A stretch of 64,000 nucleotides of DNA from NCBI GenBank assembly GCA_013151045.1, contig JAADIY010000007.1, positions 8,095-72,094 of the forward strand. The letters run 5' to 3'. The stretch is from Gammaproteobacteria bacterium. GTDB lineage: Bacteria; Pseudomonadota; Gammaproteobacteria; GCA-2400775. Shown here piece by piece: positions 14,527 to 46,287 of the stretch. The first letter of the stretch is position 1. Every line of letters starts with the position of its first letter. A program made the position numbers and the translations under genes. The notes beneath the pieces are model-generated. The model ran no database searches and was not told the DNA's origin. It saw only the letters and a list, made by a program, of their open reading frames with translations.

Positions 14527-17500
14527 TCAGTCATTATCCATGAGACGTGTAACGATCTCATAAAGCTCTTCATCACGATACGGCTTATTCAACCACGCCG
14601 CAATATTGTACTGCCGTGACTGCTCTTCATCATATTCGCTAGCGCTGATCAACACTACCGGTAAGTCACGATACTCTGACTTTGCGCGCAAGCTCTCAGC
14701 CAATTCGAGGCCACTCATTTTTGGTAACTGTAAATCAGATAGCAATAAATCTATTTTTATTCGATTAGATAGTTCAAGCGCTTCCTCAGCAGTCTTGGCA
14801 ATTTTTACTTGGTAGCCATAACCCTCCAACACTTTCTCGCAGTAGCGTCGCATAGTCAGCGAATCGTCGACTAGCAAGATAGTTTTTCTGATCACAGCAG
14901 ACGCTTCATTGCTTGTGTGATTCCCATCAGAAGAATGATTCAATTCAAGAAAGAATACGGGGTTTAATATCGGCACCAAACCACCCTCTTCAAGCAAACC
15001 TATTCCAGCCAAATAATCAGCATGCTTTAATTGATTACTCCGCTCTCCACTCAGAATGTTTTCGCTACCTTCAACAGTATCAACAATCAAAGCAAATCGA
15101 GCATTATCATCATTCAGCAATAGCGCCTGCTTATTAGTGTTGTCATGAGATTGGCTTTCAATCTGTAGCAATTCTCCTAACTGACCACACTCGTACACTT
15201 TGTCACCAACAGACAGTGTCTTCTCAACATTATTCGCGTCAACGGCAATAACATCTATTTGTCCTGGCAAAGCGAAACGCTGACCAGCGACCGTGATAAT
15301 TGTGGCCGGCATCAAAGCAGCCGAATAAGGCAAACACAAGGTAAAGCAAACGCCTCTACCAAATTCATTGCTGACCGAAATTGTTCCACCCAGCTCTTCT
15401 ATTCCTGCTCGTACTGCGTTAAGACCTACGCCTCTTCCCGATACTTGAGTGACTTGCGTCTTCGTTGAGATGACACCGTCAAATAATAAATCAATCGCCT
15501 TTTCTTCACTATAAGGCTCATCATCTCTAACTAAGTTTTGCTTTAGCGCTTTACGCCATATTCGACGCGTATCAATACCCGCACCGTCATCGGCAATAGC
15601 AATGGATATACCTATAACACCAACCGAGCAAGCTAAACGAATCGCAGCACGCGCTGGCTTCCCTGCGTTCAATCGTATCTCTTCTGTCTCAATACCGTGA
15701 TCAACCGCATTACGTAATATATGGCCTAATATTGCTGAGATACGGCGCAACATCACACGATCAAATTTAATCTCTGTATCGCCAATATATAAAGCAACGT
15801 TCTTCTCTAGCTGTGCTGAAGTTTGCTCAACCAAGCGCTGATACTTATTCGCATCAAAGCCAATTCCAACCATGCGCGCATCAACTAGCGACTGGCGTAT
15901 AAAAGACGTCGCCGCTGACATGTCATCAAGACGAGTCTCTATATTACCGACACGACGCAGCACTTGATTCGTCGCCAAACGCATATCACTTATTGCTTCA
16001 GCCAAACGTACTTTTTGATCCGATGATGTTGAACTATCATCGAGCTCTGACGACAAACGATAAATAGTCCCATCAAGCTCAGCAACTACTGCCATGGCAT
16101 TGCTCACTTCATCAAATAACGCAGTTTGTCCAACAAGCTCTTCAGCATTAAGCTGAAATAAGCGATGCAACTGGGCATCACTTATTTGAAAATGATCTTC
16201 ATTACTTTCTGTTGAAATGATGATAGGTTCAGAGACATCTTTATTAGCAACTCCAGCTGTTTGCTCTGACACTACGTTCGAGTGATTTTGAGCAACTTCA
16301 TTATCACTCGATCTCGACGTGAACCCAAGCATATGGCGCATGCTATCAATAGATTGCTCAAACGAATCTATTAACTGTGGTGACGACGGCAATAATCCAG
16401 ATTGGATAGACGACAACATCGACTCTAAGCCATGACATAAATCGCCGATATCTCGATACCCAGCCACTAACGAACTGCCTTTGAGCGTATGCAGCGAGCG
16501 TTGCAAGGCATTTATAGACTCATCAGCACTATCAGAAGAGTGCCAACGCGCTAATTGTGCAACCATCTCATCAAGTAGCCCCGAAGCTTCTTGGGTAAAG
16601 CTCTCGACAATATCCAAATCAACATGTTGACTAATAGTAGTAATATTAACCGAACGTTGACTCTCCTCCTTTTCATCAGGTTCGGGCGCATCATCTACGA
16701 TACCTTGATCCGACAGCGACAATAAATCTGAAGTTTCAAGCAACGAATCAAAGTCATCTAATAAATTTTCAGTTTCTTCGATAAACTCATTCACCGGCAT
16801 CGGTGCTTCGTCATTAGTTGCTTCATGCAATGTCAATTTATTGCTATCTACTGCGGCGTGTTCCAAATCAAGCTCAGCAAAGCGGGTTTCTGACAACTGC
16901 AATAAGCTTTCAACATTTAACGACATCGCGGCACGCGCTTGTGTAATCTCATCCAACGAACACGCCAGCGCAGCAACCCCTTCGGCAAAGGTCATATAGC
17001 GATTAGTATCTAAATCCCGAACGCTCTCATTGGACTCCCCGCCCGATGTACTTTGCAATTCCACAAGATAGCTTTGCGCGCTCGCACATAATTCTCTATG
17101 TTTGTCTAAACCAACAAGTTCAAAACAACGCATAACACGATAGCTAATATCATAGGCATGAGACAAGGCATTAGGGTTGGCTGATTGATCTCGCAACCAT
17201 GCTTCTAGAACTTGCTCCATGCTTGCTAATTCATGTCGGCATTCGGCCAAGGCCTGACGCGTGGAATCATCTTTGAGAGCAGATAGATCATCTAATGGTT
17301 GTCTACTGCCATTGGCCAAATCCTTTATCTTGCGGCCACGCCCACTACGGCGGTCGCGTAGACCATAACGGCCTAATATTCCTAATACACGCTCACTATG
17401 CTGATAAGCATTGGTGGCTATATGGAAAAGCGCTTCTTTAGTTAGCGCTGTCGGCACGTAAGCTGTATCAGAAACTGCCAATTGTCGAATGTAACGCTCG

Positions 17501-18210
17501 ACATGGGCCAACAAAAGCCGCACTGATTGGCTGACCTGTGAACAACCACGCTGCGAATCTATCAGCGCTGCAATCACTTCAAAAAACTGGATATGTGGCC
17601 GTTCCACTGCTGCCAACCTCAAGCTATCTGTAATGGCAACCAGAACATTAATTGAATCAGGGTTCTCACAATCCTGATACCAGGCTAACAGCGCAGCCTG
17701 AAACTGATGTGCCTGTGTTTTCGCTGCCTCGATAAACTTATCTAAAGTTGCATGGAGATTTTGATTCACTGGCACAACATCAAGATCAATGGTGTGCACC
17801 TCGCTTGCGGTAACAATCTGAGCACCACGCTGCTCACGCAAGGTATTTATGACAGTCAACAAATGGTAATTCATATCTGCCGTAAGCGATGGCTTCTGCA
17901 CTGCTTCATCTAGCTCGACCAGGGCATCTTTAACCAACATTAAAACAGCAACTTTTTTAGCACCTTGCGCACCCGCAGCAACTGCCAAGGCCTCGCCAAG
18001 CTCTCGCGCCAGCAATGCAGATGCTTTGCTGGCGAGCATACTCAATGCACCGCTAACGCGTTTCAGCTCTAGCGCAAAGCCCTCTAGCTCTGCAACCGAC
18101 AAACACTCCTGTTTATCAGTGACGAGCTGTCGGCATGCCGCAATTATTTGCAATAATTGACGGCCAACTTCATGCTCTGCAATGAGGCAATTGCTGTGTG
18201 AATCCGTCAT
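14527..18210 (-). CDS. chpA: ChpA-like hybrid CheA histidine kinase (Hpt, HATPase, CheW-like, C-terminal REC)
   Basis: 1227 aa; Hpt motif HTLKGSSLVAGYRDIGDL, HATPase SGRGVGLNAVRAGIEELGGTISV, C-terminal receiver LLVDDSLTMRR...DLLLSDLQLPKMSG. Confidence 0.85.
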   Translation of the reverse strand: MTDSHSNCLIAEHEVGRQLLQIIAACRQLVTDKQECLSVAELEGFALELKRVSGALSMLASKASALLARELGEALAVAAGAQGAKKVAVLMLVKDALVELDEAVQKPSLTADMNYHLLTVINTLREQRGAQIVTASEVHTIDLDVVPVNQNLHATLDKFIEAAKTQAHQFQAALLAWYQDCENPDSINVLVAITDSLRLAAVERPHIQFFEVIAALIDSQRGCSQVSQSVRLLLAHVERYIRQLAVSDTAYVPTALTKEALFHIATNAYQHSERVLGILGRYGLRDRRSGRGRKIKDLANGSRQPLDDLSALKDDSTRQALAECRHELASMEQVLEAWLRDQSANPNALSHAYDISYRVMRCFELVGLDKHRELCASAQSYLVELQSTSGGESNESVRDLDTNRYMTFAEGVAALACSLDEITQARAAMSLNVESLLQLSETRFAELDLEHAAVDSNKLTLHEATNDEAPMPVNEFIEETENLLDDFDSLLETSDLLSLSDQGIVDDAPEPDEKEESQRSVNITTISQHVDLDIVESFTQEASGLLDEMVAQLARWHSSDSADESINALQRSLHTLKGSSLVAGYRDIGDLCHGLESMLSSIQSGLLPSSPQLIDSFEQSIDSMRHMLGFTSRSSDNEVAQNHSNVVSEQTAGVANKDVSEPIIISTESNEDHFQISDAQLHRLFQLNAEELVGQTALFDEVSNAMAVVAELDGTIYRLSSELDDSSTSSDQKVRLAEAISDMRLATNQVLRRVGNIETRLDDMSAATSFIRQSLVDARMVGIGFDANKYQRLVEQTSAQLEKNVALYIGDTEIKFDRVMLRRISAILGHILRNAVDHGIETEEIRLNAGKPARAAIRLACSVGVIGISIAIADDGAGIDTRRIWRKALKQNLVRDDEPYSEEKAIDLLFDGVISTKTQVTQVSGRGVGLNAVRAGIEELGGTISVSNEFGRGVCFTLCLPYSAALMPATIITVAGQRFALPGQIDVIAVDANNVEKTLSVGDKVYECGQLGELLQIESQSHDNTNKQALLLNDDNARFALIVDTVEGSENILSGERSNQLKHADYLAGIGLLEEGGLVPILNPVFFLELNHSSDGNHTSNEASAVIRKTILLVDDSLTMRRYCEKVLEGYGYQVKIAKTAEEALELSNRIKIDLLLSDLQLPKMSGLELAESLRAKSEYRDLPVVLISASEYDEEQSRQYNIAAWLNKPYRDEELYEIVTRLMDND

Positions 18211-20225
18211 GACTCGACCTTCTGTTGCGAATCATTTTCAGCAACAACATTGACCTGAGTAGCAATAAGCTTATCCAACTTCCTAACACATAGGTCACTT
18301 TCTGTCGCCGCCACTAACAAACGCTGGTTACCATCTTGCAACTCATCCAAAACTAAGGATATAGTTTCTGTATGCCGCGCCTGCGAACGATCTGCTCCGG
18401 CAATTGCACGGGCAAACTCTGACGTACTTACATCGACCTTATTAACCTTACTTAGAACACTAGATTGAAAATGGTCAAAAAGCTCTGGAACACCTTCAAT
18501 TTTTTCTATTTGTTGTAGTAACGAACTCATGCTCGATGTCATATCAACCAGCAACTGCATAATATCGTTAACCTGACCGTGATAACGCCCTGTTAGCGAC
18601 TGCAAGGACTCCATCGCCCTGCGCACAGCTCGATCACTACCCGGCCTACCCGCTAATGACGTACTGGTATCAATGACTTCTAGATTAATGCGTTGTGACA
18701 ATTTGGCTAAGGAGTGCAATCGATCATCAATGTGCTGCTGTAACTGACGCACAGCATGCGCGGTAATATCTGTTGAACCACCTTTTTCACTATCCGACAA
18801 TTGCAATGCTGCCTGATCAATATGTTGAATTAGCGATTGTAACTGTGATTGGGTCTGCACTAGATGACCCGCTAATTCAGTTGAAGCAGAAGTCTGCCCA
18901 GAGACTATATTACTTAGCCCAACACTCAGGCGCGCGATATCATTTGCTTGGCGATCAATAGTCGCCACCATACCCGCCTCGGCCTTAGCCAAGCCTTTGA
19001 CTAATGGCAAAAAGTCTTTTTCTATTTGCTTATCAAGCAAACCTACATAAGCTACCATTCGATTAGCCTGACCTGCCAAATGCCGACAATTTATCGATTC
19101 AACACGCACAGTAATCGCATGATCGCCTTCAGAAAAAGCCGCCATCTGCCTAGAAATATTATCAATCCCTTCCTGCGTGCTATCTTTTTCAATAGATAAG
19201 CTGACTCTTTCAGCATCCACCGTTCGCACATGACAATAAGCCATATACAACAGCCACAACATGACTAATGCAATAGCAAAATATAGCGACAACCGTTCTT
19301 TAGTGAAACCCTTGGTTAACTGTAGTCGATCTTTTACCAACTGCTGAACTGGCGTTATTAGTAAGCCACTGTCCTCAACAAGCAATTGCACATGCTTATT
19401 AATATCCTGGGTCACAACAAGAGAGCCCATCACTTTACGAATACTAATAGCCAACTCCGCCAAACGTTGTGCTATCGCATTAATTTTCAATAATAGTGAG
19501 ACATCTGAACCATCTTGCTTAGCCTCCTCTAAAGCCTCTTTGTTATCCACAGACATAATCTCGAGACTTTTTTCTAGCAAGAACAAATCGGCTTCTATCG
19601 AACTTGTCAGGGCCGCGCGCGCATTGACATTAACTGCACTCAGTACACTGGCTGTCGCAGCATTGGTATTAGCCGCCATTCGTTGTAAAATGATGCGCTG
19701 CTCACGCAGCAATCTCAAACTTGCTGGTTTTCTTAAAGCGACGCGCAATTCATCTATAACAAGATTATGTTCAGTTAATACATCTGGAAGACGCTGATCT
19801 GTATCTTCAACAGCAATTCGTAGATCAGACAATTTGTCCTTGCTTGACAACAAACCCATTACTGCCTCGCGCACTGGCTGCCAAATATCGCTTAGCTGTT
19901 TAAATGTCTGCCACGAATCACTAACATCTTTTTGATAACTAGGTCTCAACACATCTAAGCCTTGCTGATAGCCCTCAACACTTGATGCCAGTTTTTCAAA
20001 TGCATTCAGCTCGAGCTGACTAATAGCAACCGCATGACTTGCCATTAAGGCTGATTGCGCATTAAGGCTGAATAATTGCTCAACATGAGCTTCGCTCTCT
20101 GCGCCTTGTTGATGTAAGAACCAAGCCGCTACACCCACCTGCAATAGCAAAGCTATTAGCAAGGCTACGTGCCAACGCTTATTACCGTTGAACAACGTTA
20201 ACAGATAATGAAAAAAATCATGCAT
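18207..20225 (-). CDS. pilJ: PilJ-like transmembrane chemoreceptor (MCP-like architecture; signalling domain divergent)
   Basis: 672 aa; two TM segments flanking a ~270-aa periplasmic domain, post-TM region resembling PilJ (MAAFSEGDHAITV), long coiled-coil cytoplasmic domain; sits between pilI and chpA. Confidence 0.6.
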   Translation of the reverse strand: MHDFFHYLLTLFNGNKRWHVALLIALLLQVGVAAWFLHQQGAESEAHVEQLFSLNAQSALMASHAVAISQLELNAFEKLASSVEGYQQGLDVLRPSYQKDVSDSWQTFKQLSDIWQPVREAVMGLLSSKDKLSDLRIAVEDTDQRLPDVLTEHNLVIDELRVALRKPASLRLLREQRIILQRMAANTNAATASVLSAVNVNARAALTSSIEADLFLLEKSLEIMSVDNKEALEEAKQDGSDVSLLLKINAIAQRLAELAISIRKVMGSLVVTQDINKHVQLLVEDSGLLITPVQQLVKDRLQLTKGFTKERLSLYFAIALVMLWLLYMAYCHVRTVDAERVSLSIEKDSTQEGIDNISRQMAAFSEGDHAITVRVESINCRHLAGQANRMVAYVGLLDKQIEKDFLPLVKGLAKAEAGMVATIDRQANDIARLSVGLSNIVSGQTSASTELAGHLVQTQSQLQSLIQHIDQAALQLSDSEKGGSTDITAHAVRQLQQHIDDRLHSLAKLSQRINLEVIDTSTSLAGRPGSDRAVRRAMESLQSLTGRYHGQVNDIMQLLVDMTSSMSSLLQQIEKIEGVPELFDHFQSSVLSKVNKVDVSTSEFARAIAGADRSQARHTETISLVLDELQDGNQRLLVAATESDLCVRKLDKLIATQVNVVAENDSQQKVES

Positions 20226-33432: not shown

Positions 33433-34020
33433 ATGACTATGACTAGCAGCAAAACTTACCCAAATATGAACCCTTCGAGCTGGCTCGACGATTATGGCGA
33501 TGAGTTATATCGCTATGCCTTAGCCCGCTTGCGCGACAAATCTGCGGCCGAAGATGTCGTACAAGAAACGCTACTCGCTGCACTCAAAGCACAAGAGAAT
33601 TTCCGTGGTGATTCGGCTGTTAAAACATGGTTAATCGGCATCATGAAATTCAAGATCATCGATTTTTATCGTAAATCTGCTCGTGAAATCCAAAGTGAAA
33701 GCTTAGAACACACTTTATCCTCTTCTGAAGATAATGATTTTGACGAAAATGGCCGTTGGCTAACAGCGGTTAATAGCTGGTCTGACCCTGATTTAGCCTT
33801 GCATCAAGATCAGTTCTTTGCTGTCTATCAGAGTTGCATCGACGCCCTACCCGAAGATCAAGCAAAGCTATTTGTTCTCAACGAGACCAGTGATCTGAGC
33901 AGCGAAGAATTATGCAAGATAATAAATATCTCTACGACTAATAATCTCTGGGTAATTTTATCACGGACAAGGAAGCGCCTGAGAGACTGTATTGATAAAA
34001 ACTGGTTTAACGCGGAATAG
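33433..34020 (+). CDS. RNA polymerase sigma-70 factor, ECF subfamily
   Basis: 195 aa; region 2 (DVVQETLLAALKA...FKIIDFYRK) and region 4. Confidence 0.8.
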   Translation: MTMTSSKTYPNMNPSSWLDDYGDELYRYALARLRDKSAAEDVVQETLLAALKAQENFRGDSAVKTWLIGIMKFKIIDFYRKSAREIQSESLEHTLSSSEDNDFDENGRWLTAVNSWSDPDLALHQDQFFAVYQSCIDALPEDQAKLFVLNETSDLSSEELCKIINISTTNNLWVILSRTRKRLRDCIDKNWFNAE

Positions 34021-34022
34021 AT

Positions 34023-34274
34023 ATGCTGTCATGTAAGCAAGTATCTGAATTATCAGCTCGCGCAAAATGTGAAGGACTAAGTTTTAGCGATAGAATAAAG
34101 CTTAAGTACCATATGATGATGTGCAAGGGATGCCAAACCTATCATCAGCAAATTAACCTACTACAACAAGCCACTGCAAAACTATTCAACAAGCCCACGG
34201 GGGGCGATACACTCTGCAAAGAAGCCCGTGAGCGTATCAAACAAAACTTAAAATCCGACAAATCGAAAGACTAA
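34023..34274 (+). CDS. zinc-finger (zf-HC2 / ChrR-like) anti-sigma factor
   Basis: 83 aa; H-x3-C-x2-C motif (HMMMCKGCQTYH); 2 bp downstream of the ECF sigma gene. Confidence 0.6.
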   Translation: MLSCKQVSELSARAKCEGLSFSDRIKLKYHMMMCKGCQTYHQQINLLQQATAKLFNKPTGGDTLCKEARERIKQNLKSDKSKD

Positions 34275-37189: not shown

Positions 37190-37330
37190 GTAAATGCCTC
37201 CTGGAAAATCAAACGTCTGAAAATGCCACCATGAGCACTCAGACTTCTATTAAATTCGTAAAGATAAAAAATGAAGATGTCTATATGGCCTAGCCAGTTC
37301 CCGCTGCCAAAGACCACCAGAGCTAAAAAG

Positions 37331-37376
37331 GCGTCTTTTGCGGAGTTCTCGGGGCTTGCCCCGAACAAAAGCACGC
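37331..37376. repeat. REP-like nested hairpin element
   Basis: GCGTCTTTTGcggagttctCGGGGcttgCCCCGaaCAAAAGCACGC: inner 5-bp GC stem inside an imperfect ~10-bp outer stem. Confidence 0.35.
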
Positions 37377-37636
37377 TATAATAGCCAAGCAACGGCGGCG
37401 CAGCAACTTTTGCTACTCGCAACCCAGCTTATCGTTCAACCATAACGCACTGGTAAGCCATCGCCTCGCACTGGAGTCAAAAGACCAATCACGATAATAT
37501 CGTCAGTAATTAAAACTTATTACGACTATGTGACACAGGTACAACAAGCTTCTTATAGCCTTGAACTACCATGTATCATGGGCTGACTCCCAGCACCGAC
37601 TGTATTTCAAGACCACTCGTATTCACTGAGGAAACA

Positions 37637-38602
37637 ATGCATCCTACCCTGCCACGACTCGAAAAAACTGATTTCCCTGCGCTTCGCCGTGGCACCCTTG
37701 AAACAGTACAAGTCAACGTCGGCTATCTGTGCAACCTAAGCTGTATCCACTGCCATGTTAACGCCGGGCCCGCTCGCAAAGAGATCATGACTCGAGATAC
37801 TGTCGACGAAATCCTCCAATACTTACAAGTCTGTGGCGCCAAAACGCTTGATCTGACAGGTGGCGCGCCTGAAATGAATCCTGATTTTCGCTACTTCGTC
37901 AAAGCTGCCCGCGACCTAGGTCTAGAAGTCATTGACCGCTGCAACCTGACTATATTGTCTGAACCAGGCTATGAAGGTACCGCTGAGTTTTTGGCTGAAA
38001 ATGGCGTCACCGTCGTTGCCTCACTGCCTTGCTACTCAGAAGACAATGTCGACGCACAACGTGGCGATGGTGTGTTTGATGGCAGCATCAAGGGCTTACA
38101 GATGCTCAACGCACTAGGTTATGGCCAAACCGATGGCGACTTAGTTCTCGATCTTGTCTACAACCCACAAGGCGCGACACTGCCGCCATCACAAAAAGAA
38201 TTAGCAGCAAATTATCATCACTATCTTAAGGCACAATTCGGCGTGGTGTTCAATCAACTCTATACTGTCGCCAATATGCCTATTAAACGTTTTGGTAGCA
38301 TGCTAATTTCTAACGGCACGTTTGACGGCTATATGGATTTGCTGCGCTCAGCACATAACAGTGATAACGTCTCTTCTGTCATGTGCCGTAGCTTGATCAG
38401 CGTTGACTGGAAGGGCTATGTCTATGATTGTGATTTCAATCAAATGCTTGATTTACCCTTAGCAAATGAAACCAAGCGCGCACATATCTCGGACTTAATA
38501 GATACAGACCTAAAAGGTCAAAACATAATTGTAAAAAACCACTGCTACGGATGTACTGCTGGACAAGGCAGTAGCTGTGGTGGTGCTCTTGATGCCGCGT
38601 AA
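37637..38602 (+). CDS. arsS: radical SAM / Cys-rich 'selenodomain' protein (ArsS-like, TIGR04167-type)
   Basis: CNLSCIHC (C-x3-C-x2-C) radical SAM motif near the N-terminus; C-terminal CYGCTAGQGSSCGG Cys-rich tail; start chosen at ATG with GAGGAAA RBS (alternative upstream ATG at 37571). Confidence 0.75.
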   Translation: MHPTLPRLEKTDFPALRRGTLETVQVNVGYLCNLSCIHCHVNAGPARKEIMTRDTVDEILQYLQVCGAKTLDLTGGAPEMNPDFRYFVKAARDLGLEVIDRCNLTILSEPGYEGTAEFLAENGVTVVASLPCYSEDNVDAQRGDGVFDGSIKGLQMLNALGYGQTDGDLVLDLVYNPQGATLPPSQKELAANYHHYLKAQFGVVFNQLYTVANMPIKRFGSMLISNGTFDGYMDLLRSAHNSDNVSSVMCRSLISVDWKGYVYDCDFNQMLDLPLANETKRAHISDLIDTDLKGQNIIVKNHCYGCTAGQGSSCGGALDAA

Positions 38603-38650: not shown

Positions 38651-39724
38651 ATGAATATGCAGTCTGCCGTTCTTTCAACCTATTCTGACGGTGCAAAAGA
38701 GGTTCAAGCCGAACTTTGTTGTCCTGTAGATTACGACACCAGCTTGCTAAAAATGTTGCCACAAGAAATTATTGAAAAAGACTATGGTTGCGGCGACCCC
38801 TCGCGCTATGTCCGTGAAGGTGACACGGTTGTCGATCTAGGCAGTGGCGGCGGAAAAATCTGCTATATGGCTGCACATCTCGCTGGCGAAAACGGAGAAA
38901 TCATCGGCGTCGATATGAACGATGACATGCTTGGTCTCGCACGTAAATACCAAAGCGAAATGGCTAAAAAAATTGGTGGTGACCGCGTCCGTTTTGTTAA
39001 AGGGCATATCCAAGATCTCGCTTTAGATCTCGAAGCGCTCGACAAATACTTGACTGCAAACCCAGTCAACAACGCTGATGCTTATCACGATTTAATCGCA
39101 TGGAAATCAAAGCAGCGTAATGAAGCACCATTAATCGCTGACAACTCTGTTGACCTTGTTATCTCCAACTGTGTACTCAACCTTGTTAGTGATGCTGAAA
39201 AAATACAGCTCATCAATGAAATCTTTCGCGTACTCAAACCTGGCGGCCGTGTCGCAATTTCAGATATCGTTAGCGATGAATATGTGCCCGACCACTTAAA
39301 AGCTGATCCAAAGTTGTGGAGTGGTTGCATCTCAGGCGCCTTCCAAGAACAAGAATTTGCCGACGCCTTTATCGACGCTGGTTTCGTTGGAGCTTGCTAT
39401 GACAAATGGGATACTGCGCCATGGCAAACTGTCGAAGGCATTGAATTTCGTTCGGTCACGCTGACCGCGAGCAAGCCACTGGTTAGTAATGATGACACCG
39501 TGCACGAAGTAATCTATCAAGGCCCATTTGCTGAAATTTGCGATGACTACGGCAACATTTTTGTCCGCGGTGAAAAAACGCCTGTTGATGCAGAAAGTTG
39601 CGCAGCATTATTCAGTGGCGCTTACCAAAACTTATTCACCGACTGTAACGTGCCCTTGGGCTACAGTGCAGAAAGTAGCGGATGCTGTGCTCCTGCTGCA
39701 AATGAAAAGAGTAGCTGCTGTTAG
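38651..39724 (+). CDS. arsM: ArsM-like SAM-dependent (arsenite) methyltransferase
   Basis: SAM motif VVDLGSGGG; Cys pattern matching the ArsM catalytic cysteines (ELCCPVDYD, SNCVLNLV, WSGCISGA); C-terminal Cys-rich tail SSGCCAPAANEKSSCC. Confidence 0.75.
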   Translation: MNMQSAVLSTYSDGAKEVQAELCCPVDYDTSLLKMLPQEIIEKDYGCGDPSRYVREGDTVVDLGSGGGKICYMAAHLAGENGEIIGVDMNDDMLGLARKYQSEMAKKIGGDRVRFVKGHIQDLALDLEALDKYLTANPVNNADAYHDLIAWKSKQRNEAPLIADNSVDLVISNCVLNLVSDAEKIQLINEIFRVLKPGGRVAISDIVSDEYVPDHLKADPKLWSGCISGAFQEQEFADAFIDAGFVGACYDKWDTAPWQTVEGIEFRSVTLTASKPLVSNDDTVHEVIYQGPFAEICDDYGNIFVRGEKTPVDAESCAALFSGAYQNLFTDCNVPLGYSAESSGCCAPAANEKSSCC

Positions 39725-39759
39725 ACCGTAGCTAACCAAACTCTGTTATTAAACCCATC

Positions 39760-40437
39760 GTGCGTATCGCTGTTATTGTCCCGTGCTTAGACGAGGCAAG
39801 GCATATCGTCTCGATGCTTTCGCGCTTACAATACTTACGCCAAAATGGCCATCAACTCATCGTTGTTGATGGCCAGAGCACTGATGAAAGCGTTGCTCTA
39901 GCAACGCCACTAGCTGACGATGTTGTCAGCCATCAACGCGGTAGAGCGCTACAACTGAATCATGGCGCGCAAATCACCAATGCCGATATCTTGCTGTTCC
40001 TACACGCTGACACTCAACTGCCCGACAATGCTGACACACTGATTATTGAACAACTGGCAAAGTCAAAACGTCAATGGGGACGGTTTAACGTACGCCTAAG
40101 CGGCAAACACTATTGGCTACGAGTCATCGAATTTATGATGAACACACGTTCGCGCTGGAGCGGTATTGCCACAGGCGATCAGGCTATTTTCGTTGATCGC
40201 GAATTATTCAAAAAAGTTGGTGGCTTCCCGGAAATTTCGCTCATGGAAGACATTTGTCTTTGCAAACACCTTAAACCTTATTCAAAACCGCTTTGCTTAA
40301 GTGAGCCTGTCATCACATCGAGCAGACGCTGGGAAGAAAAAGGCATATGGCGAACCATATTATTAATGTGGCGTCTACGTCTCGCCTACTTCCTTGGTAT
40401 CGACACTAAGCAACTCAAACGTCAATACGACAATTAG
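39760..40437 (+). CDS. GT2-like transferase, rSAM/selenodomain-associated family (transferase 2)
   Basis: 225 aa; GT-A N-terminus IAVIVPCLDEA...VVDGQSTDES, DxD-like LHADT; position after arsS-arsM. Confidence 0.65.
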   Translation: MRIAVIVPCLDEARHIVSMLSRLQYLRQNGHQLIVVDGQSTDESVALATPLADDVVSHQRGRALQLNHGAQITNADILLFLHADTQLPDNADTLIIEQLAKSKRQWGRFNVRLSGKHYWLRVIEFMMNTRSRWSGIATGDQAIFVDRELFKKVGGFPEISLMEDICLCKHLKPYSKPLCLSEPVITSSRRWEEKGIWRTILLMWRLRLAYFLGIDTKQLKRQYDN

Positions 40438-40455
40438 AACTCTTTAAAAAACTCT

Positions 40456-41115
40456 ATGGTAGCGCCAACAACAAACGATTCAACATCGAATGAAGCCACT
40501 ATTATTGTTTTTGCTAAAGCACCCGAACCCGGCAAAGTTAAAACACGATTGACGAGTAAACTGACACCAGAACAAGCCGCGACATTGCATCAACAGCTGG
40601 CACTACGCACCATTGCGATGACGACACTGTCAACCGTAGCCAAAGTAGAGTTATGGTGCGCACCCAATACAACACACAGTTTCTTTACACACTGCATGCA
40701 AAATTACCCTCTAACACTGCATCAACAAGTTGGCGATAACCTAGGACAGCGCATGCATAACGCCATCAGTAATGTTCTAACGCGAAGCAAACACTGCCTA
40801 ATCATTGGTACAGATTGCCCGCAACTAACTCTGCCACACCTAGACAATACATTTTCACTATTAAGCAGCGAAAATGATTGCGTCATCACCCCCGCTACTG
40901 ACGGTGGCTATGTCATGCTCGGACTCAAGCAATGCGATGAAAAACTATTTGATAATATCGAATGGGGCACTGGGTCTGTCTATGAAACAACACTAACACG
41001 ATTGCAATCACTTTCTTGGCGCTGGCTACCACAACCCGCATTAAACGATATTGATCGCCCTAGCGACTTGCATCTACTACAAAACATTGATTTACCTACA
41101 CCTATTTCCTTTTAG
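40456..41115 (+). CDS. DUF2064 / CofC-like nucleotidyltransferase-fold transferase, rSAM/selenodomain-associated family (transferase 1)
   Basis: 219 aa; IIVFAKAPEPGKVKTRL N-terminal motif typical of DUF2064/MobA-like fold. Confidence 0.65.
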   Translation: MVAPTTNDSTSNEATIIVFAKAPEPGKVKTRLTSKLTPEQAATLHQQLALRTIAMTTLSTVAKVELWCAPNTTHSFFTHCMQNYPLTLHQQVGDNLGQRMHNAISNVLTRSKHCLIIGTDCPQLTLPHLDNTFSLLSSENDCVITPATDGGYVMLGLKQCDEKLFDNIEWGTGSVYETTLTRLQSLSWRWLPQPALNDIDRPSDLHLLQNIDLPTPISF

Positions 41116-41179
41116 CTTATATTTGCACTAAGCACTGCTTGATTTCTTTCAACAATCGACTATAGTAGCCACCTCAAGT

Positions 41180-41475
41180 TTACTTCTGGTGCTTTCGTCG
41201 CTCACAACGACAAAGTTAAACGGGAAGTCGGTGCGACTAATTAATATTAGTCAATGCCGACACTGCCCCCGCAACGGTAAGCGAGTTACTTAGGCAATAC
41301 GTCACTGTGCTCAGGCATGGGAAGGCGCCCAAAGTTTTACACTCGCGAGTCCGGAGACCGGCCCGAAGTCATTCGTCAGCGACTGTTGCGGAGGGCAACA
41401 CGAAGCGATAGAGCCTCTCTTTCGTACTTGTTTCCTTCGCACCCAAACCATGCACGGGTGGTGCATAAGGAAACA
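41180..41475 (+). promoter_or_regulatory. cobalamin (AdoCbl) riboswitch with RBS-sequestering expression platform, leader of btuB
   Basis: GGTGC...AAACGGGAAGTCGGTG...GCCGACACTGCCCC core plus B12 box GAGTCCGGAGACCGGCC (41347-41363); downstream hairpin TTGTTTCCTT...AAGGAAACAA pairs with the btuB RBS. Confidence 0.8.
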
Positions 41476-41481
41476 ATAAAA

Positions 41482-43443
41482 ATGAAAAACCGTCTTTTTA
41501 TCGCTCTAATTGCTAGCAATACCACGCTGGCTTTATCGTCTAATATCAGCTTTGCCGAAAGTACAGCAGTACCGCTCGATCGAATTATTATTAGCGATAC
41601 TCGCTCTGCAACTACAAGCGTTAATTTCCCCGGAAAAATCACCCTCATCGATGCAGACCAAATTGAAAAAACTGGCGCAAACAATATCGTTGACGTACTA
41701 CGCACTACCGGTGGAGTCCAAATCTCTGAACTATTCGGCAATGGTACGGATGCAAGTGTGAGCCTAAGAGGGTTTTCAGAAACAGCAGGTCAAAATACCT
41801 TGATATTGGTAGATGGCCGCCGTTTAAACAACGCCGACTTAGAAGCGCCTGACCTAAATACTATTGCCTTGCAAGATATTGAGCGCATAGAAATAACCAA
41901 AGGTAGTGCTTCAGTCCTATATGGCGACAAAGCGGTGGGCGGCGTTATCAACATCATCACCCGCTCTCCCGATGCACTACGCATCAATACAGAAGTTGGC
42001 TTTGGTTCTTTTGATAAAAAAAGTTATTTTGCTAGCGTCGAAGACCGTCACTCAAGTGGTTTCGGCTATCGAATAAACACCAAGCACCGAGAAAGCGACA
42101 ACTTTCGCGACAACAATTCATTTGAACTCACAGACTTTTTTGGCAAAGGCAGTTACGAACACGATAGTGGTGAGTTCTTTTTCGAATACCAAAGCGTAGA
42201 TGAAGACCTAAGGCTCCCTGGACCACTTGGTGCAGCGCTAATAGCTAACAATAGAGAACAAACTGTTAACCCTAACGATTTTACTAATACTAATTCTGAT
42301 ATCGGTCGAATTGGCTTTATACAGTCAATTAATGAAAGCCTTGATGCGCAATTTGAATATACTAGCCGTAGCAGTAACTCATCAGGAATGGTAACAGTAG
42401 GTGGTTTTGGCAGCGCCCTTACAACAGACCGCCAGCATATTGAATTCACTCCTCGGCTAATTTTCACCCAAGAATCATCTATCGGCGACAGAATCATTAC
42501 CGTAGGTGCGGACATATTTAAGTCAGACTATCGCCTAGAATCAACATTTGGTGTTACTGATAATGAACAAAAACAACGTAGCGTTTATTTACACGGTGTC
42601 TTTCCTGTCAGCGAGAAACTTGCTTTAACTACCGGAGCGAGACGTACACTCGTCAATAATGACTTAATTGCATCCAGCTTCCCAAATGGGGTAGACATTA
42701 ACGATGAAGAAAATGCCTGGGAAACCGGTGTTGCTTTTCAAGCCAATAAAAACCTTCGCTTATTCAGCCGTGTAGAGCAGAACTTTCGTTTTGCGGTTGC
42801 TGATGAGTATGCCTCTATATTCGGCGCATTCCCTTTCCCAAACACTCAAACAGGCATGTCATATGAAGCTGGTCTTGAATGGAAAAACCGCAATTCAGCT
42901 ATCAGCTTAGAAATTTATCAGCTTGATCTTGATAACGAGATATCATTTGACCCGAATTTATTCATAAACACTAATATCGGTGATAGCCGACGTCGCGGCC
43001 TCATCATTGAAGGCTCGCAAAGCATCAACAGTGCTTGGACTGTAAGCGCTAACCTAAGCTACCTTGATCATGAAATTACTAGCGGTTCATTCAATGGCGC
43101 CGAAATTCCTTTGGTTGCAGATAAGACCTTAGCCGTCAGCGCAAATTACCAGCACAATGAACATCTGTCTGGCTATATAGAAGTCATTGCTACTAGCGAT
43201 CGCATCCTTGGCGCTGATTTTAGTAACAACGCTTCAAGGCTAGCCGGCTACGCAATTAGCAATCTCAACTTACAGTACAAATTAAACAACTTTAGATTTG
43301 GGCTGCGCATTAACAATCTGCTCAATAAAGAATATAGTGACAACGGAAATTTTGCTGCATTCTCAACTCCACAAGAAAGCTTTTTCCCAGCACCGGAACG
43401 TAATTATTTCTTAACAATACAGTACAATCACGAAGTCATATAA
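41482..43443 (+). CDS. btuB: TonB-dependent vitamin B12 receptor
   Basis: Signal peptide, TonB box region, plug and beta-barrel, C-terminal ...YNHEVI; preceded by cobalamin riboswitch; start at internal ATG (ORF track starts 41317 inside the riboswitch). Confidence 0.8.
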   Translation: MKNRLFIALIASNTTLALSSNISFAESTAVPLDRIIISDTRSATTSVNFPGKITLIDADQIEKTGANNIVDVLRTTGGVQISELFGNGTDASVSLRGFSETAGQNTLILVDGRRLNNADLEAPDLNTIALQDIERIEITKGSASVLYGDKAVGGVINIITRSPDALRINTEVGFGSFDKKSYFASVEDRHSSGFGYRINTKHRESDNFRDNNSFELTDFFGKGSYEHDSGEFFFEYQSVDEDLRLPGPLGAALIANNREQTVNPNDFTNTNSDIGRIGFIQSINESLDAQFEYTSRSSNSSGMVTVGGFGSALTTDRQHIEFTPRLIFTQESSIGDRIITVGADIFKSDYRLESTFGVTDNEQKQRSVYLHGVFPVSEKLALTTGARRTLVNNDLIASSFPNGVDINDEENAWETGVAFQANKNLRLFSRVEQNFRFAVADEYASIFGAFPFPNTQTGMSYEAGLEWKNRNSAISLEIYQLDLDNEISFDPNLFINTNIGDSRRRGLIIEGSQSINSAWTVSANLSYLDHEITSGSFNGAEIPLVADKTLAVSANYQHNEHLSGYIEVIATSDRILGADFSNNASRLAGYAISNLNLQYKLNNFRFGLRINNLLNKEYSDNGNFAAFSTPQESFFPAPERNYFLTIQYNHEVI

Positions 43444-43458
43444 ATAGCTGGATAGAAA

Positions 43459-44001
43459 ATGGGCAATCGACTCACCAAGATATACACTTGCACCGGTGAT
43501 GATGGCAGCACAGGTCTTGGCGACGGCACACGCGTTAGCAAGGATCACATGCGTGTCGACTGTTACGGCAGTACTGATGAAACCAACGCTCAGATTGGTG
43601 TTGTGTTAACACACAATATTCCTGGCGAGGTCAGCACATGTTTATCTGCGATACAGCACCGCCTATTTGATTTAGGCGGTGAGCTATGCATCCCAGGGCA
43701 TACTATTTTAACCGCGGAACATGTCACGCAACTTGAAGAACAAATAGATGCATTCAATGAAAACCTTCCGCCACTAAAAGAATTTATTCTCCCTGGTGGC
43801 AATGCTGCTGGCGCTCATTGCCATGTCGCTCGAACCGTATGCCGACGTAGCGAGCGGCTACTCGTCACGTTAAGCAAAGAAGAAACTATTAACCCTCATG
43901 CACTAAAATATCTAAATCGCTTGTCTGACTTACTATTTGTTATCGCCCGCGTGCTAACACGCGCCGATGGCAGCGACGAAGTCTATTGGACACGCGATTA
44001 A
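43459..44001 (+). CDS. cobO: ATP:cob(I)alamin adenosyltransferase, PduO type
   Basis: 180 aa; KIYTCTGDDGSTGL N-terminus characteristic of PduO-type adenosyltransferases. Confidence 0.85.
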   Translation: MGNRLTKIYTCTGDDGSTGLGDGTRVSKDHMRVDCYGSTDETNAQIGVVLTHNIPGEVSTCLSAIQHRLFDLGGELCIPGHTILTAEHVTQLEEQIDAFNENLPPLKEFILPGGNAAGAHCHVARTVCRRSERLLVTLSKEETINPHALKYLNRLSDLLFVIARVLTRADGSDEVYWTRD

Positions 44002-44791: not shown

Positions 44792-45385
44792 TCAACCTTC
44801 ATGAAACAATAATGTCGGTGGTGAACCTGGCGTAAACTGCAATCGTGTTATCGCGGCATTGCTTACTTTAATACGAAACATGTTTTCAATAGGACTGCCC
44901 AACACATAGCTAATTGCGGCACGTATCACACCCGCATGCGCAACAACTAATACGTGACGACCTGGGTTTTCATCAACAATATTATCTATTGCACGACAAA
45001 TGCGTTGCTGAAAGTCTACTAACACTTCTGCACCCTGCGGTCGGTTTGCCACAGGGTCGCTAAAAAAACGTTGTAATATATGAGGGTCATCAGCACACAG
45101 TTGATCTCGCGTCATACCCTCCCACACGCCAAAGCCTATTTCTTTTAAACGATCCTCAGAACGGCAAGATAAACCGTGGGTTTGCGCTAACTCTTCGGCA
45201 AATGCCTGACAGCGAATCAACGGTGAGCTAACAATCACTTGCCAAGGAATTTCACTGGGTACGGCATCGCGCATTTGCTGCCAACCTAAATCGCTTAGCG
45301 GATCATCAATTTGTCCGCGATAACGCCTACCGCCAACCGGCTCGCCGTGGCGCATAAAATCAATAATAGTGCGGTTAGTAGACAT
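44792..45385 (-). CDS. cobC: alpha-ribazole phosphatase / histidine phosphatase family
   Basis: IDFMRHGEP...(RHG catalytic motif), phosphoglycerate-mutase-like fold; start 2 bp after the cbiB stop (ORF track extends to 45487). Confidence 0.7.
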   Translation of the reverse strand: MSTNRTIIDFMRHGEPVGGRRYRGQIDDPLSDLGWQQMRDAVPSEIPWQVIVSSPLIRCQAFAEELAQTHGLSCRSEDRLKEIGFGVWEGMTRDQLCADDPHILQRFFSDPVANRPQGAEVLVDFQQRICRAIDNIVDENPGRHVLVVAHAGVIRAAISYVLGSPIENMFRIKVSNAAITRLQFTPGSPPTLLFHEG

Positions 45386-45387
45386 CG

Positions 45388-46287
45388 CTATGTCCACCCC
45401 CACATAGTCAATAATGCGATGACTATTAACCATATCACTACCGTGCGAGTAGTCAGCCGGTAGGCACTGTCGATGTGCCCATGCCAATCATCGGGGTCAT
45501 CGACCTCGACACCTTCTCTGCATGTACGAAACTGTAAAGCGCTGATACCTGTCTCAACTAATATACGGCGGTTACCTGCTATCCAATCTTGCTTCCAACG
45601 TGACGTGTTTTTTCTCCAACACTCCACAACATCAATAAAACTGCCAGCAAGCGCATAACCTATAGCCGTTAGACGTGCAGGAATCCAAGCCAATATGCCA
45701 TGAAGAATTCGTGCGCTCTCCACTACAGATGCCAGGCTATTACATGAATGAAGCAAATCATCACGCAATACCGATGACAGTCGAAACAACACTGCCCCAA
45801 TAGGACCTAGCACAACAAACCAAAATATGACGCCCAATAAACGTTCATTATTTGCCACTAAAACACCATCGAGCACGGCACGATGCAGTCCATGCTCGTC
45901 ATCTTTTTGAACGCTTCCTCGCGCGATAATCGTATCAACATGTTGCAGCGCGGCTTTTTCATTACCGGCATCGCAGGCGGCAATATAATTCGTCAACTGG
46001 CGCTGTAAATTCATTGGACCAAAACTGTAGATGAGTATCACTAACGAAAACACTAGATAAACTAAACTATTCCATTCAGCAAGCCTAGCTTGTAGTAGAC
46101 CTACAACTAACACGGGAACCAATAAAATTAGCAGCAGGCCAATAACGCCACCACCGAAGGCAAAAATTTTCGAGTGCGTAAGAGAAAAATCAACCAAGCG
46201 CTGAAGCCAGTGATATTTTCTAATTTCGTCAATGGATGGTGCGAAACGCTCAACGAACAGCGCTAACAATATCACTATTAAATTCAT
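45388..46287 (-). CDS. cbiB: adenosylcobinamide-phosphate synthase
   Basis: 299 aa polytopic membrane protein with CobD/CbiB-like hydropathy and motifs. Confidence 0.75.
   Translation of the reverse strand: MNLIVILLALFVERFAPSIDEIRKYHWLQRLVDFSLTHSKIFAFGGGVIGLLLILLVPVLVVGLLQARLAEWNSLVYLVFSLVILIYSFGPMNLQRQLTNYIAACDAGNEKAALQHVDTIIARGSVQKDDEHGLHRAVLDGVLVANNERLLGVIFWFVVLGPIGAVLFRLSSVLRDDLLHSCNSLASVVESARILHGILAWIPARLTAIGYALAGSFIDVVECWRKNTSRWKQDWIAGNRRILVETGISALQFRTCREGVEVDDPDDWHGHIDSAYRLTTRTVVIWLIVIALLTMWGWT

Follow-up and report, generated by a model that had tools for sequence, protein, structure and literature searches.

A GT2 glycosyltransferase and a CofC-like DUF2064 protein encoded behind arsS and arsM as candidates for late steps of arsenosugar biosynthesis

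Arsenosugars and arsenolipids are the main organic forms of arsenic in marine food webs, and to our knowledge only the first two enzymes of arsenosugar biosynthesis, ArsM and ArsS, are known. In published work, the radical S-adenosylmethionine (SAM) enzyme ArsS combines dimethylarsenite (DMAs(III)) with a 5'-deoxyadenosyl radical to give 5'-deoxy-5'-dimethylarsinoyl-adenosine (DDMAA). Here we analyze a 64-kb stretch of DNA from a gammaproteobacterium (assembly GCA_013151045.1, contig JAADIY010000007.1, positions 8,095 to 72,094; referred to as the window), in which arsS and arsM are followed by a GT2 glycosyltransferase gene and a DUF2064 gene (positions 39760-41115 of the window). An earlier note on this DNA had proposed the two transferases as candidates for the steps that follow DDMAA. 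We find that the pair is physically linked to ArsS in many genomes, and we hypothesize that it activates and transfers the arsenic-bearing ribose.

The closest described systems are gene clusters in which both families have already been named for this pathway. NCBI calls TIGR04283 and TIGR04282 alike "arsenosugar biosynthesis glycosyltransferase"; the older TIGRFAM names, still in use at JGI, are rSAM/selenodomain-associated transferase 2 (TIGR04283) and 1 (TIGR04282). The pair stands beside an annotated arsS on RefSeq plasmids of Burkholderia glumae, B. thailandensis, Ca. Thiodictyon and Hymenobacter. The association with arsenosugars is already curated, the names being derived from genome context, and TIGR04282 has only the status of a "hypothetical equivalog". 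Searches of the literature for functional or biochemical studies of TIGR04283 or TIGR04282/DUF2064, or of a nucleosidase or phosphorylase in arsenosugar formation, returned echoes of the annotation only, and no paper found there gives either transferase a reaction, so that the premise of the earlier note, that neither has an assigned step, stands. Its proposal that the pair supplies candidates is supported by fold, position and co-variation, as described below, but it is not new, since NCBIfam already names both families accordingly. Compared with the clusters of the B. glumae BGR1 plasmid bglu_2p type, the window pair shares scores above the family cut-offs, the invariant residues, the order GT2-then-DUF2064 and the linkage to arsS. 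It differs from other TIGR04283/TIGR04282 clusters by the presence of arsM between arsS and the pair, and by the absence of the TVP38-reductase fusion, DUF547, DUF3047, S-methyl-5'-thioadenosine phosphorylase (MTAP) and a family of about 340 amino acids. The window locus is a minimal four-gene member of this named, context-defined system, and adds no new kind to it.

Analogies to better characterized enzymes are found for each transferase. In FbiD, an enzyme of coenzyme F420 synthesis, two Mg ions and the phosphate of the substrate are bound by a three-Asp motif, and the enzyme is inactive without its partner FbiA (PMC6450877). The DUF2064 protein shares with CofC and FbiD the MobA-like fold (template modeling (TM) score ~0.7), the KTRL loop and the three-Asp motif for two Mg ions and phosphate, and in the same way as FbiD needs FbiA, its gene always has a transferase gene coupled to it. 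In contrast to CofC and FbiD, however, the partner is a GT2 enzyme of the GT-A fold and not a CofD-type protein, F420 genes are not found nearby, and the residues on the substrate side differ (DGGY in DUF2064, GGGT in CofC); the proposed substrate is a sugar-1-phosphate. The window GT2 protein, in turn, resembles the glycosyltransferases of Leloir-type pairs (the polyprenyl-phosphate enzymes DPMS, ArnC and PcManGT, and GpgS, which has a small acceptor), which share its GT-A fold and are among its best structural matches, and it too is accompanied by a partner with a nucleoside triphosphate (NTP)-transferase fold. It differs from the Leloir GT2 enzymes in its low sequence identity to them (17-20%), the lack of transmembrane helices and an HxD in place of the DxD motif. 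Also, its partner belongs to the CofC branch, whereas the RmlA/GalU/GlmU branch appears at rank 34 or lower in the Foldseek list of DUF2064.

A precedent for the chemistry between ArsS and the pair exists in hopanoid synthesis, where radical-SAM adenosylation by HpnH is followed by removal of adenine by HpnG, a homologue of purine nucleoside phosphorylase (PMC13459092). The ArsS clusters would follow the same logic, with an enzyme of the PNP_UDP_1 family nearby that is expected to remove adenine and leave a ribosyl derivative. Unlike in the HpnH/HpnG route, the acceptor of ArsS is arsenic and not an olefin, the phosphorylase is an MTAP orthologue or paralogue and not HpnG, and it is not encoded in the window. 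The hopanoid route also has no CofC-like enzyme, in contrast to the DUF2064 clusters.

In the window, four open reading frames (ORFs) lie in a row on the plus strand. The first, arsS (longest ORF 37571-38602, gene 37637-38602), encodes a radical SAM protein matching TIGR04167, PF12345 and PF04055, with an ATG start preceded by GAGGA. It is followed after 48 bp by an arsM-like As(III) SAM methyltransferase gene (38651-39724) with GGAG upstream, the product of which ends in a Cys-rich C-terminal tail. From the arsM stop at 39724, 35 bp lead to the gene for the TIGR04283-family GT2 (GT-A) glycosyltransferase (39760-40437; GTG start, 225 amino acids), and from the GT2 stop at 40437, 18 bp lead to the gene for the TIGR04282/DUF2064 protein, a CofC/FbiD-like nucleotidyltransferase of the MobA fold (40456-41115; ATG start, 219 amino acids). 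The pair begins 1.2 kb downstream of arsS. The coordinates and spacers that the earlier note gave for the two transferase ORFs are exact, and both genes lie directly 3' of arsS-arsM with very short gaps. The nearest public proteins, from metagenome-assembled genomes (MAGs) of Thiotrichales, are 95-97% identical, while a look-up of the exact DUF2064 sequence of the window gave no record. The order arsS-arsM-GT2-DUF2064, with gaps of 3-47 bp, is kept even by relatives whose DUF2064 proteins are only 56-68% identical. Because of these homologues and the conserved four-gene order, both ORFs are real genes and not chance ORFs.

The linkage of the pair to ArsS was analyzed from both sides. For an ArsS-anchored set, species-representative genomes were scanned with an ArsS alignment and the 80 closest loci were collected, originating from alpha-, beta-, gamma- and zetaproteobacteria and one Deinococcota MAG. 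Their ORFs were annotated by phmmer against the window and Cupriavidus proteins, and 47 of the loci have at least 6 kb of sequence on both sides. Within 10 kb of ArsS, these well-flanked loci carry GT2 in 35 cases, DUF2064 in 31, both in 30 and at least one of the two in 36, always on the ArsS strand, and ArsM is found next to ArsS in 7 (~15%). Among all 80 loci, 40 carry both transferases, and in all 40 GT2 precedes DUF2064 on the ArsS strand. For a GT2-anchored set, metagenome contigs were scanned with an alignment of GT2 proteins whose first sequence is from Desulfobacterota, giving 80 loci. Here, 61 loci extend far enough downstream to include DUF2064, and in 54 of them it directly follows GT2. 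Of the 32 loci in which at least 3.5 kb precede GT2, 22 have ArsS upstream (~69%), and ArsM is present in 3 of 80. The linkage is real, because two genes that each occur once in a genome of a few Mb would be expected to lie within 10 kb of each other by chance in less than 1% of cases. Physical linkage between ArsS and the GT2-DUF2064 pair extends over several classes of Proteobacteria and into other phyla, and it is closer than the linkage between ArsS and ArsM. Co-variation with the radical SAM gene, on which the earlier note had made its proposal depend, is thus seen in both sets (36 of 47 ArsS loci, 22 of 32 GT2 loci).

The arrangement of the genes varies, and 15 cluster architectures were distinguished, the commonest being ArsS-GT2-nucleotidyltransferase (44 loci). 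The order in the window, with ArsM between ArsS and GT2, is rare outside its close clade (2 of ~90 scored clusters). The distance from the GT2 stop to the KTRL codons of DUF2064 has a median of 55 nt in 96 loci (102 nt in the window), and therefore the two genes normally abut or overlap. Three ArsM subtypes occur in such clusters: the NF038099 type (~550 bits), the type found in the window, which scores below the cut-offs, and a PRK11873-like type. The recruitment of three subtypes supports an arsenic compound as the substrate of the pathway.

The DUF2064 protein matches TIGR04282 with 204 bits (cut-off 134) and PF09837 with 97.8 bits (cut-off 25.8). With the CofC models the match is borderline for PF01983 (22.4 bits, cut-off 22) and below the cut-off for TIGR03552 (39.9 bits, cut-off 105). 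The closest sequence of solved structure is PDB entry 3CGX (phmmer E = 9e-18). The AlphaFold model of the protein is confident (predicted local distance difference test score (pLDDT) 94.8) and superimposes in Foldseek on 3CGX, the solved member of the family, with its MobA-like NTP-transferase fold (TM 0.81, root-mean-square deviation 2.5). The next matches are CofC (2I5E), 3-phospho-D-glycerate guanylyltransferase (7P97) and FbiD (6BWH), followed by IspD and KdsB. The CofC/MobA-type nucleotidyltransferase fold that had been claimed from the sequence is in agreement with the model and these matches. In a profile search, K29-T30-R31-L32 aligns with the KxRL loop of FbiD and CofC, and D120, D198 and D200 align with D116, D188 and D190 of FbiD; all these residues are invariant or nearly so in the family. 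With the fold and the three-Asp motif for Mg and phosphate both kept, the DUF2064 protein most likely transfers a nucleotidyl group to a phosphorylated substrate, and the product name "glycosyltransferase" that NCBI gives to TIGR04282 is, to judge from the model, probably a misnomer.

Two other assignments of the DUF2064 protein were considered and rejected. A true glycosyltransferase was rejected because such enzymes appear in the Foldseek list only at rank 38 or lower, with TM scores of ~0.45-0.56. Membership of the CofC family proper was rejected on account of the TIGR03552 score and the genomic context. CofD/FbiA or other F420 pathway genes were found neither in the region of the window nor in 160 related loci, where the partner of DUF2064 is always GT2.

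The GT2 protein matches TIGR04283 with 272 bits (cut-off 182) over 221 of 221 model positions and PF00535 with 43.3 bits (cut-off 23.3). Its AlphaFold model is likewise confident (pLDDT 93.8), and the best Foldseek matches are PcManGT, WrtF, ArnC, DPMS, GpgS and TarS (TM ~0.6-0.68), which bears out the GT2/GT-A fold named in the earlier note. Invariant residues in the family are D37, D42, H82-x-D84, ATGDQ (137-141) and MED (162-164), together with S187, R189 and W191 in the segment SSRRW (187-191). D37 and D42 are the Asp residues assigned to nucleotide binding, and H82-x-D84 occupies the position of the metal-binding DxD motif and is aligned to the DAD of DPMS. Transmembrane helices are not predicted, and the C-terminal part (residues 189-224) forms W/R/L-rich amphipathic helices. 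By its model, the protein is a complete, soluble GT-A glycosyltransferase domain, with a putative role in arsenosugar synthesis. We consider the family assignment of both transferases as nearly certain.

Of the two proteins encoded upstream, ArsS scores 463.5 bits with TIGR04167 (cut-off 300) and 189 bits with PF12345, and also matches PF04055. It contains the radical SAM motif CxxxCxxC (CNLSCIHC), a C-terminal DUF3641 domain and, in the alignment, a C-terminal GSSCGG of the Cys type. The longest ORF starts at 37571, and homologues support the second Met (ATG 37637), in line with gene calls of 321 amino acids in relatives. The methyltransferase is clearly ArsM-like (E = 1e-111) and reaches no curated ArsM cut-off. 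Its best NCBIfam models are all of ArsM types: NF040538, an arsinothricin-type model (373 bits, below 500), NF008823 (186, below 263) and NF038099, the "arsenosugar ArsM" model (115, below 400). NF038099 fits the betaproteobacterial ArsMs of other ArsS-GT2-DUF2064 clusters, and not the window protein. The Cys motifs CCP, GCGDP, SNCV and SGCISGA are present in the sequence. The window ArsM is a subtype outside every curated model, and the same subtype is found in three loci of the ArsS-anchored set (L004, L006 and L013).

We hypothesize that the pair completes the pathway in a Leloir-type manner. ArsM would form dimethylarsenite, and ArsS would attach the 5'-deoxyadenosyl group to give DDMAA, the latter step being known from published work. 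DDMAA is an analogue of S-methyl-5'-thioadenosine. An enzyme of the MTAP type could phosphorolyze it to 5-deoxy-5-dimethylarsinoyl-alpha-D-ribose-1-phosphate with loss of adenine; in the window organism this would presumably be a housekeeping enzyme encoded outside the window. The DUF2064 protein would then use an NTP (GTP by analogy) to convert the arsenoribose-1-phosphate to a nucleoside diphosphate (NDP)-arsenoribose, and the inverting GT2 would move the arsenoribosyl group to a hydroxyl acceptor, with a beta-riboside as the product. Glycerol or glycerol phosphate could serve as the acceptor, as could the head group of a membrane lipid such as phosphatidylglycerol, so that the product may be an arsenosugar or an arsenosugar lipid.

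Several observations make this scheme plausible. In Cupriavidus, MTAP (TIGR01694, 279 bits) is encoded directly after DUF2064, the operon on the B. glumae plasmid has the order MTAP-TIGR04283-TIGR04282, and in another 8 loci of Burkholderiales MTAP lies beside ArsS. Enzymes of the GT2 family are inverting, and natural arsenosugars are beta-ribofuranosides. An alpha-1-phosphate, which MTAP yields (PMC13316717, PMC7226091), an inverting GT2 and a beta-ribofuranoside product fit together stereochemically. The tight coupling of the two transferase genes suggests that a labile NDP intermediate may be handed directly from DUF2064 to GT2, and the dependence of FbiD on its partner provides a rationale for such coupling. 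The interfacial C-terminal helices of GT2 and its relatives acting on polyprenyl phosphate make a membrane-bound acceptor plausible. Taken as a whole, we give this explanation a probability of about 0.5. Its parts are not equally secure. It is likely that the pair acts in the ArsS pathway. The specific order phosphorylase, DUF2064, GT2 is inferred and tentative, and we would put it somewhat below even odds. We speculate further that the pair and an MTAP-type enzyme form an undescribed Leloir-type branch, in which the new nucleotide sugar NDP-5-deoxy-5-(dimethylarsinoyl)-ribofuranose serves as the donor and GT2 at the membrane surface places the arsenoribose on a lipid head group or glycerol phosphate, though in this detailed form the idea is rather unlikely.

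Several findings weigh against the proposed scheme. About one third of the GT2-DUF2064 pairs have no ArsS within 10 kb (as in L118, L124 and L133 of the GT2-anchored set), and two of these (L118 and L133) sit beside unrelated genes. Conversely, neither transferase is near ArsS in 11 of the 47 well-flanked ArsS loci. Since ArsM is adjacent in only ~15% of the ArsS loci, the substrate need not always be a methylated arsenical. MTAP occurs only in clusters of Burkholderiales, and was found neither in the 80 GT2-anchored metagenome loci nor in the window. The closest characterized relatives of DUF2064 activate C3 phospho-acids, namely phosphoenolpyruvate (PEP), 2-phospholactate and 3-phosphoglycerate, and not sugar-1-phosphates, and we know of no description of an NDP-activated 5-deoxyribofuranose donor. 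The first Asp of the canonical DxD motif of GT2 enzymes is His in the family of the window protein. The ArsS scan gave the 80 closest loci, proteobacterial apart from the one Deinococcota MAG, a search with an NF038099-type ArsM returned betaproteobacterial proteins only (at least 84% identity), and the plasmid searches gave no cyanobacteria, so that none of these scans reached a proven arsenosugar producer among cyanobacteria or algae. Experimental work on either transferase family was not found in the searchable literature.

The specificity of the closest DUF2064 relatives leads to a different assignment of roles, along the lines of CofC and CofD. DUF2064 would guanylylate a C3 phospho-compound (PEP, 2-phospholactate, 3-phosphoglycerate or glycerol phosphate), so that the activated unit would be the future aglycone and not the arsenoribose, and GT2 would join it to the ribose derived from DDMAA. 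The nearest characterized relatives, CofC, FbiD (crystallized with PEP) and 3-phospho-D-glycerate guanylyltransferase, are consistent with this, as is the weak match of DUF2064 to TIGR03552 and PF01983. The aglycones of arsenosugars have three carbons and some carry a phosphate, and GpgS, which has 3-phosphoglycerate as its acceptor, is among the fold matches of GT2. However, GT2 enzymes of the GT-A fold use NDP-sugar or polyprenyl-phosphate-sugar donors, and transfer of a phospho-alcohol is not known for them; it is the task of CofD/FbiA- or TagF-type proteins, none of which is encoded in the clusters. The contacts of FbiD with the PEP carboxylate are not family-invariant in DUF2064, where an invariant DGGY stands against GGGT in CofC, and the TIGR03552 score of 39.9 bits is far under the cut-off of 105. 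The MTA phosphorylases encoded within clusters also indicate a sugar-1-phosphate as the substrate. We consider guanylylation of a C3 unit improbable.

The scarcity of ArsM raises another question, namely whether ArsS, GT2 and DUF2064 form a more general system for processing 5'-deoxyadenosyl adducts, or one for metalloid or redox stress, with other compounds of As, Se, Te or S as the usual substrate. Arsenosugars would then be a special case or a misleading name, and the arsM of the window a lineage-specific addition. Only 7 of the 47 well-flanked ArsS loci and 3 of the 80 GT2 loci have ArsM as a neighbor, and no arsM lies within 20 kb of the cluster on the B. glumae plasmid. Partners connected to redox or metal stress are frequent: the TVP38-MerA-like fusion (27 of 47), the TIGR03169 oxidoreductase of the SelD-associated type, ECF sigma/anti-sigma genes, thioredoxin/CcdA and DUF692/DUF2063/DoxX. 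In addition, the ArsS of many species is a selenoprotein, and the original names of the transferase families read "rSAM/selenodomain-associated". Yet the sole biochemistry of this radical SAM family is the adenosylation of DMAs(III), three ArsM subtypes (including NF038099, ~550 bits) were recruited independently, and an arsM gene can lie at a distance from the cluster in the same genome. In the window itself, arsM lies between arsS and GT2 (gaps of 48 and 35 bp), an arrangement kept across the clade. The odds of a general system of this kind are low in our view. That the transferases are unrelated neighbors, transcribed apart from arsS-arsM and making another nucleotide-activated metabolite, is barely credible. 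GT2 and DUF2064 lack the recognizable Shine-Dalgarno sequences of arsS and arsM, and some pairs stand alone beside unrelated genes (L118, L133), but linkage in 64-77% of ArsS loci and ~69% of GT2 loci, compared with less than 1% by chance, holds in many gene orders and distant taxa, and the spacers of 35 and 18 bp are too short for a promoter, with none detected inside arsM or GT2.

The comparative data sharpen the question about the late steps into a testable scheme of three enzymes, in which a phosphorylase, a CofC-like nucleotidyltransferase and an inverting GT2 act in succession. The locus will not surprise a specialist, but the question about its chemistry is real, and the module is carried by many non-photosynthetic bacteria. 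If the proposed Leloir-type branch is correct, it would close the gap between DDMAA and the arsenosugars and arsenosugar phospholipids, and bacteria resembling sulfur oxidizers, along with many other non-photosynthetic bacteria, would be unrecognized sources of these compounds.

A scan for promoters and terminators revealed no promoter-like or terminator-like site on the plus strand within the four-gene cluster, and from this and the short gaps we infer that the four genes are co-transcribed. The upstream neighbor of the cluster is the divergent pntAB. To the region between pntA and arsS (37190-37636), a four-way alignment was applied, comprising the window and three relatives (L170, L171 and L172) whose proteins are only 56-68% identical. 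Two conserved blocks stand out on the plus strand. One (37355-37392) contains a perfect TATAAT (37377-37382), a candidate -10 element ~255 nt upstream of arsS that was missed by the consensus scan because its -35 element is poor. The other is a block of 41 nt (37495-37535) with an imperfect dyad, CGTAA...TTACG, which may be an operator or a second promoter element. The two blocks are likely to be the promoter and operator of the four-gene unit. In the 450-nt leader of arsS, a search for structured RNA gave no Rfam match even at E = 1. Shine-Dalgarno sequences are recognizable before arsS (GAGGA) and arsM (GGAG), and none is present before GT2 (39725-39759) or DUF2064 (40438-40455), which suggests that translation of the pair is lower or coupled.

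On the downstream side, the cluster is delimited on the plus strand (41139-41380) by a promoter-like site (41139-41166) and a cobalamin riboswitch (41170-41380; RF00174, 111.6 bits). The genes that follow (41139-44001 and 44792-46287) encode a TonB-dependent receptor, a PduO-type adenosyltransferase, a CobC-like histidine phosphatase and CobD, and belong to B12 uptake and salvage. The longest ORF of the receptor (start 41317) overlaps the riboswitch; the true start is probably a Met at ~41482, where the predicted N-terminus (MKNRLFIALI...) resembles a signal peptide.

None of the accessory genes of related clusters, MTAP included, is present within the window. The common ones are the fusion of a TVP38/VTT domain and a MerA-like FAD reductase (27 of 47 loci), DUF547, DUF3047, a TIGR03169 oxidoreductase, a symporter and the 340-amino-acid family. 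The fusion joins a DedA-like TVP38/VTT domain to a FAD disulfide reductase resembling MerA and lipoamide dehydrogenase, and is often encoded between ArsS and GT2 (L004:6422-8593, L167:2010-4220); possible roles are the reduction of pentavalent arsenicals and the handling of a lipid carrier. The family of ~340 amino acids is encoded directly after ArsS in at least 15 loci (L053:12356-13384, L167:15327-16346 and 14 further ones listed). It has an invariant GCGC(A)YP, whose vicinal cysteines suggest binding of As(III), and, by eye, degenerate metallophosphoesterase-like motifs (NGD, GNVE and HGD). Searches of Pfam, NCBIfam and PDB with a single sequence or a profile gave no match, and an assignment as a metallophosphoesterase, based on likeness by eye and backed by no database match, was not adopted. 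On a plasmid of Hymenobacter volaticus (Bacteroidota; L169:6153-9891), a TIGR04283 GT2, an NAD-dependent epimerase/dehydratase, a short-chain dehydrogenase/reductase and arsS are encoded in a row. This cluster has no DUF2064 and a DUF547 gene nearby, and its epimerase/dehydratase and short-chain dehydrogenase/reductase hint at an NDP-sugar intermediate.

The rest of the window is ordinary, Thiotrichales-like chromosome with genes of the Calvin cycle and glycolysis, metK, ahcY, metF and gshAB. On the minus strand (14527-20225), ORFs of 1227 and 672 amino acids adjoin a CheB-like gene, and the 672-amino-acid protein has no Pfam match at an E of 1e-5 or better. A gene for an extracytoplasmic function (ECF)-type sigma factor is found together with a small zf-HC2-like anti-sigma gene at 33433-34274. 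Such sigma/anti-sigma pairs recur in the neighborhood of ArsS, namely in 11 of the analyzed loci (L006:6370-7242, L167:11016-11809 and nine others) and on the B. glumae plasmid, and may be dedicated regulators.

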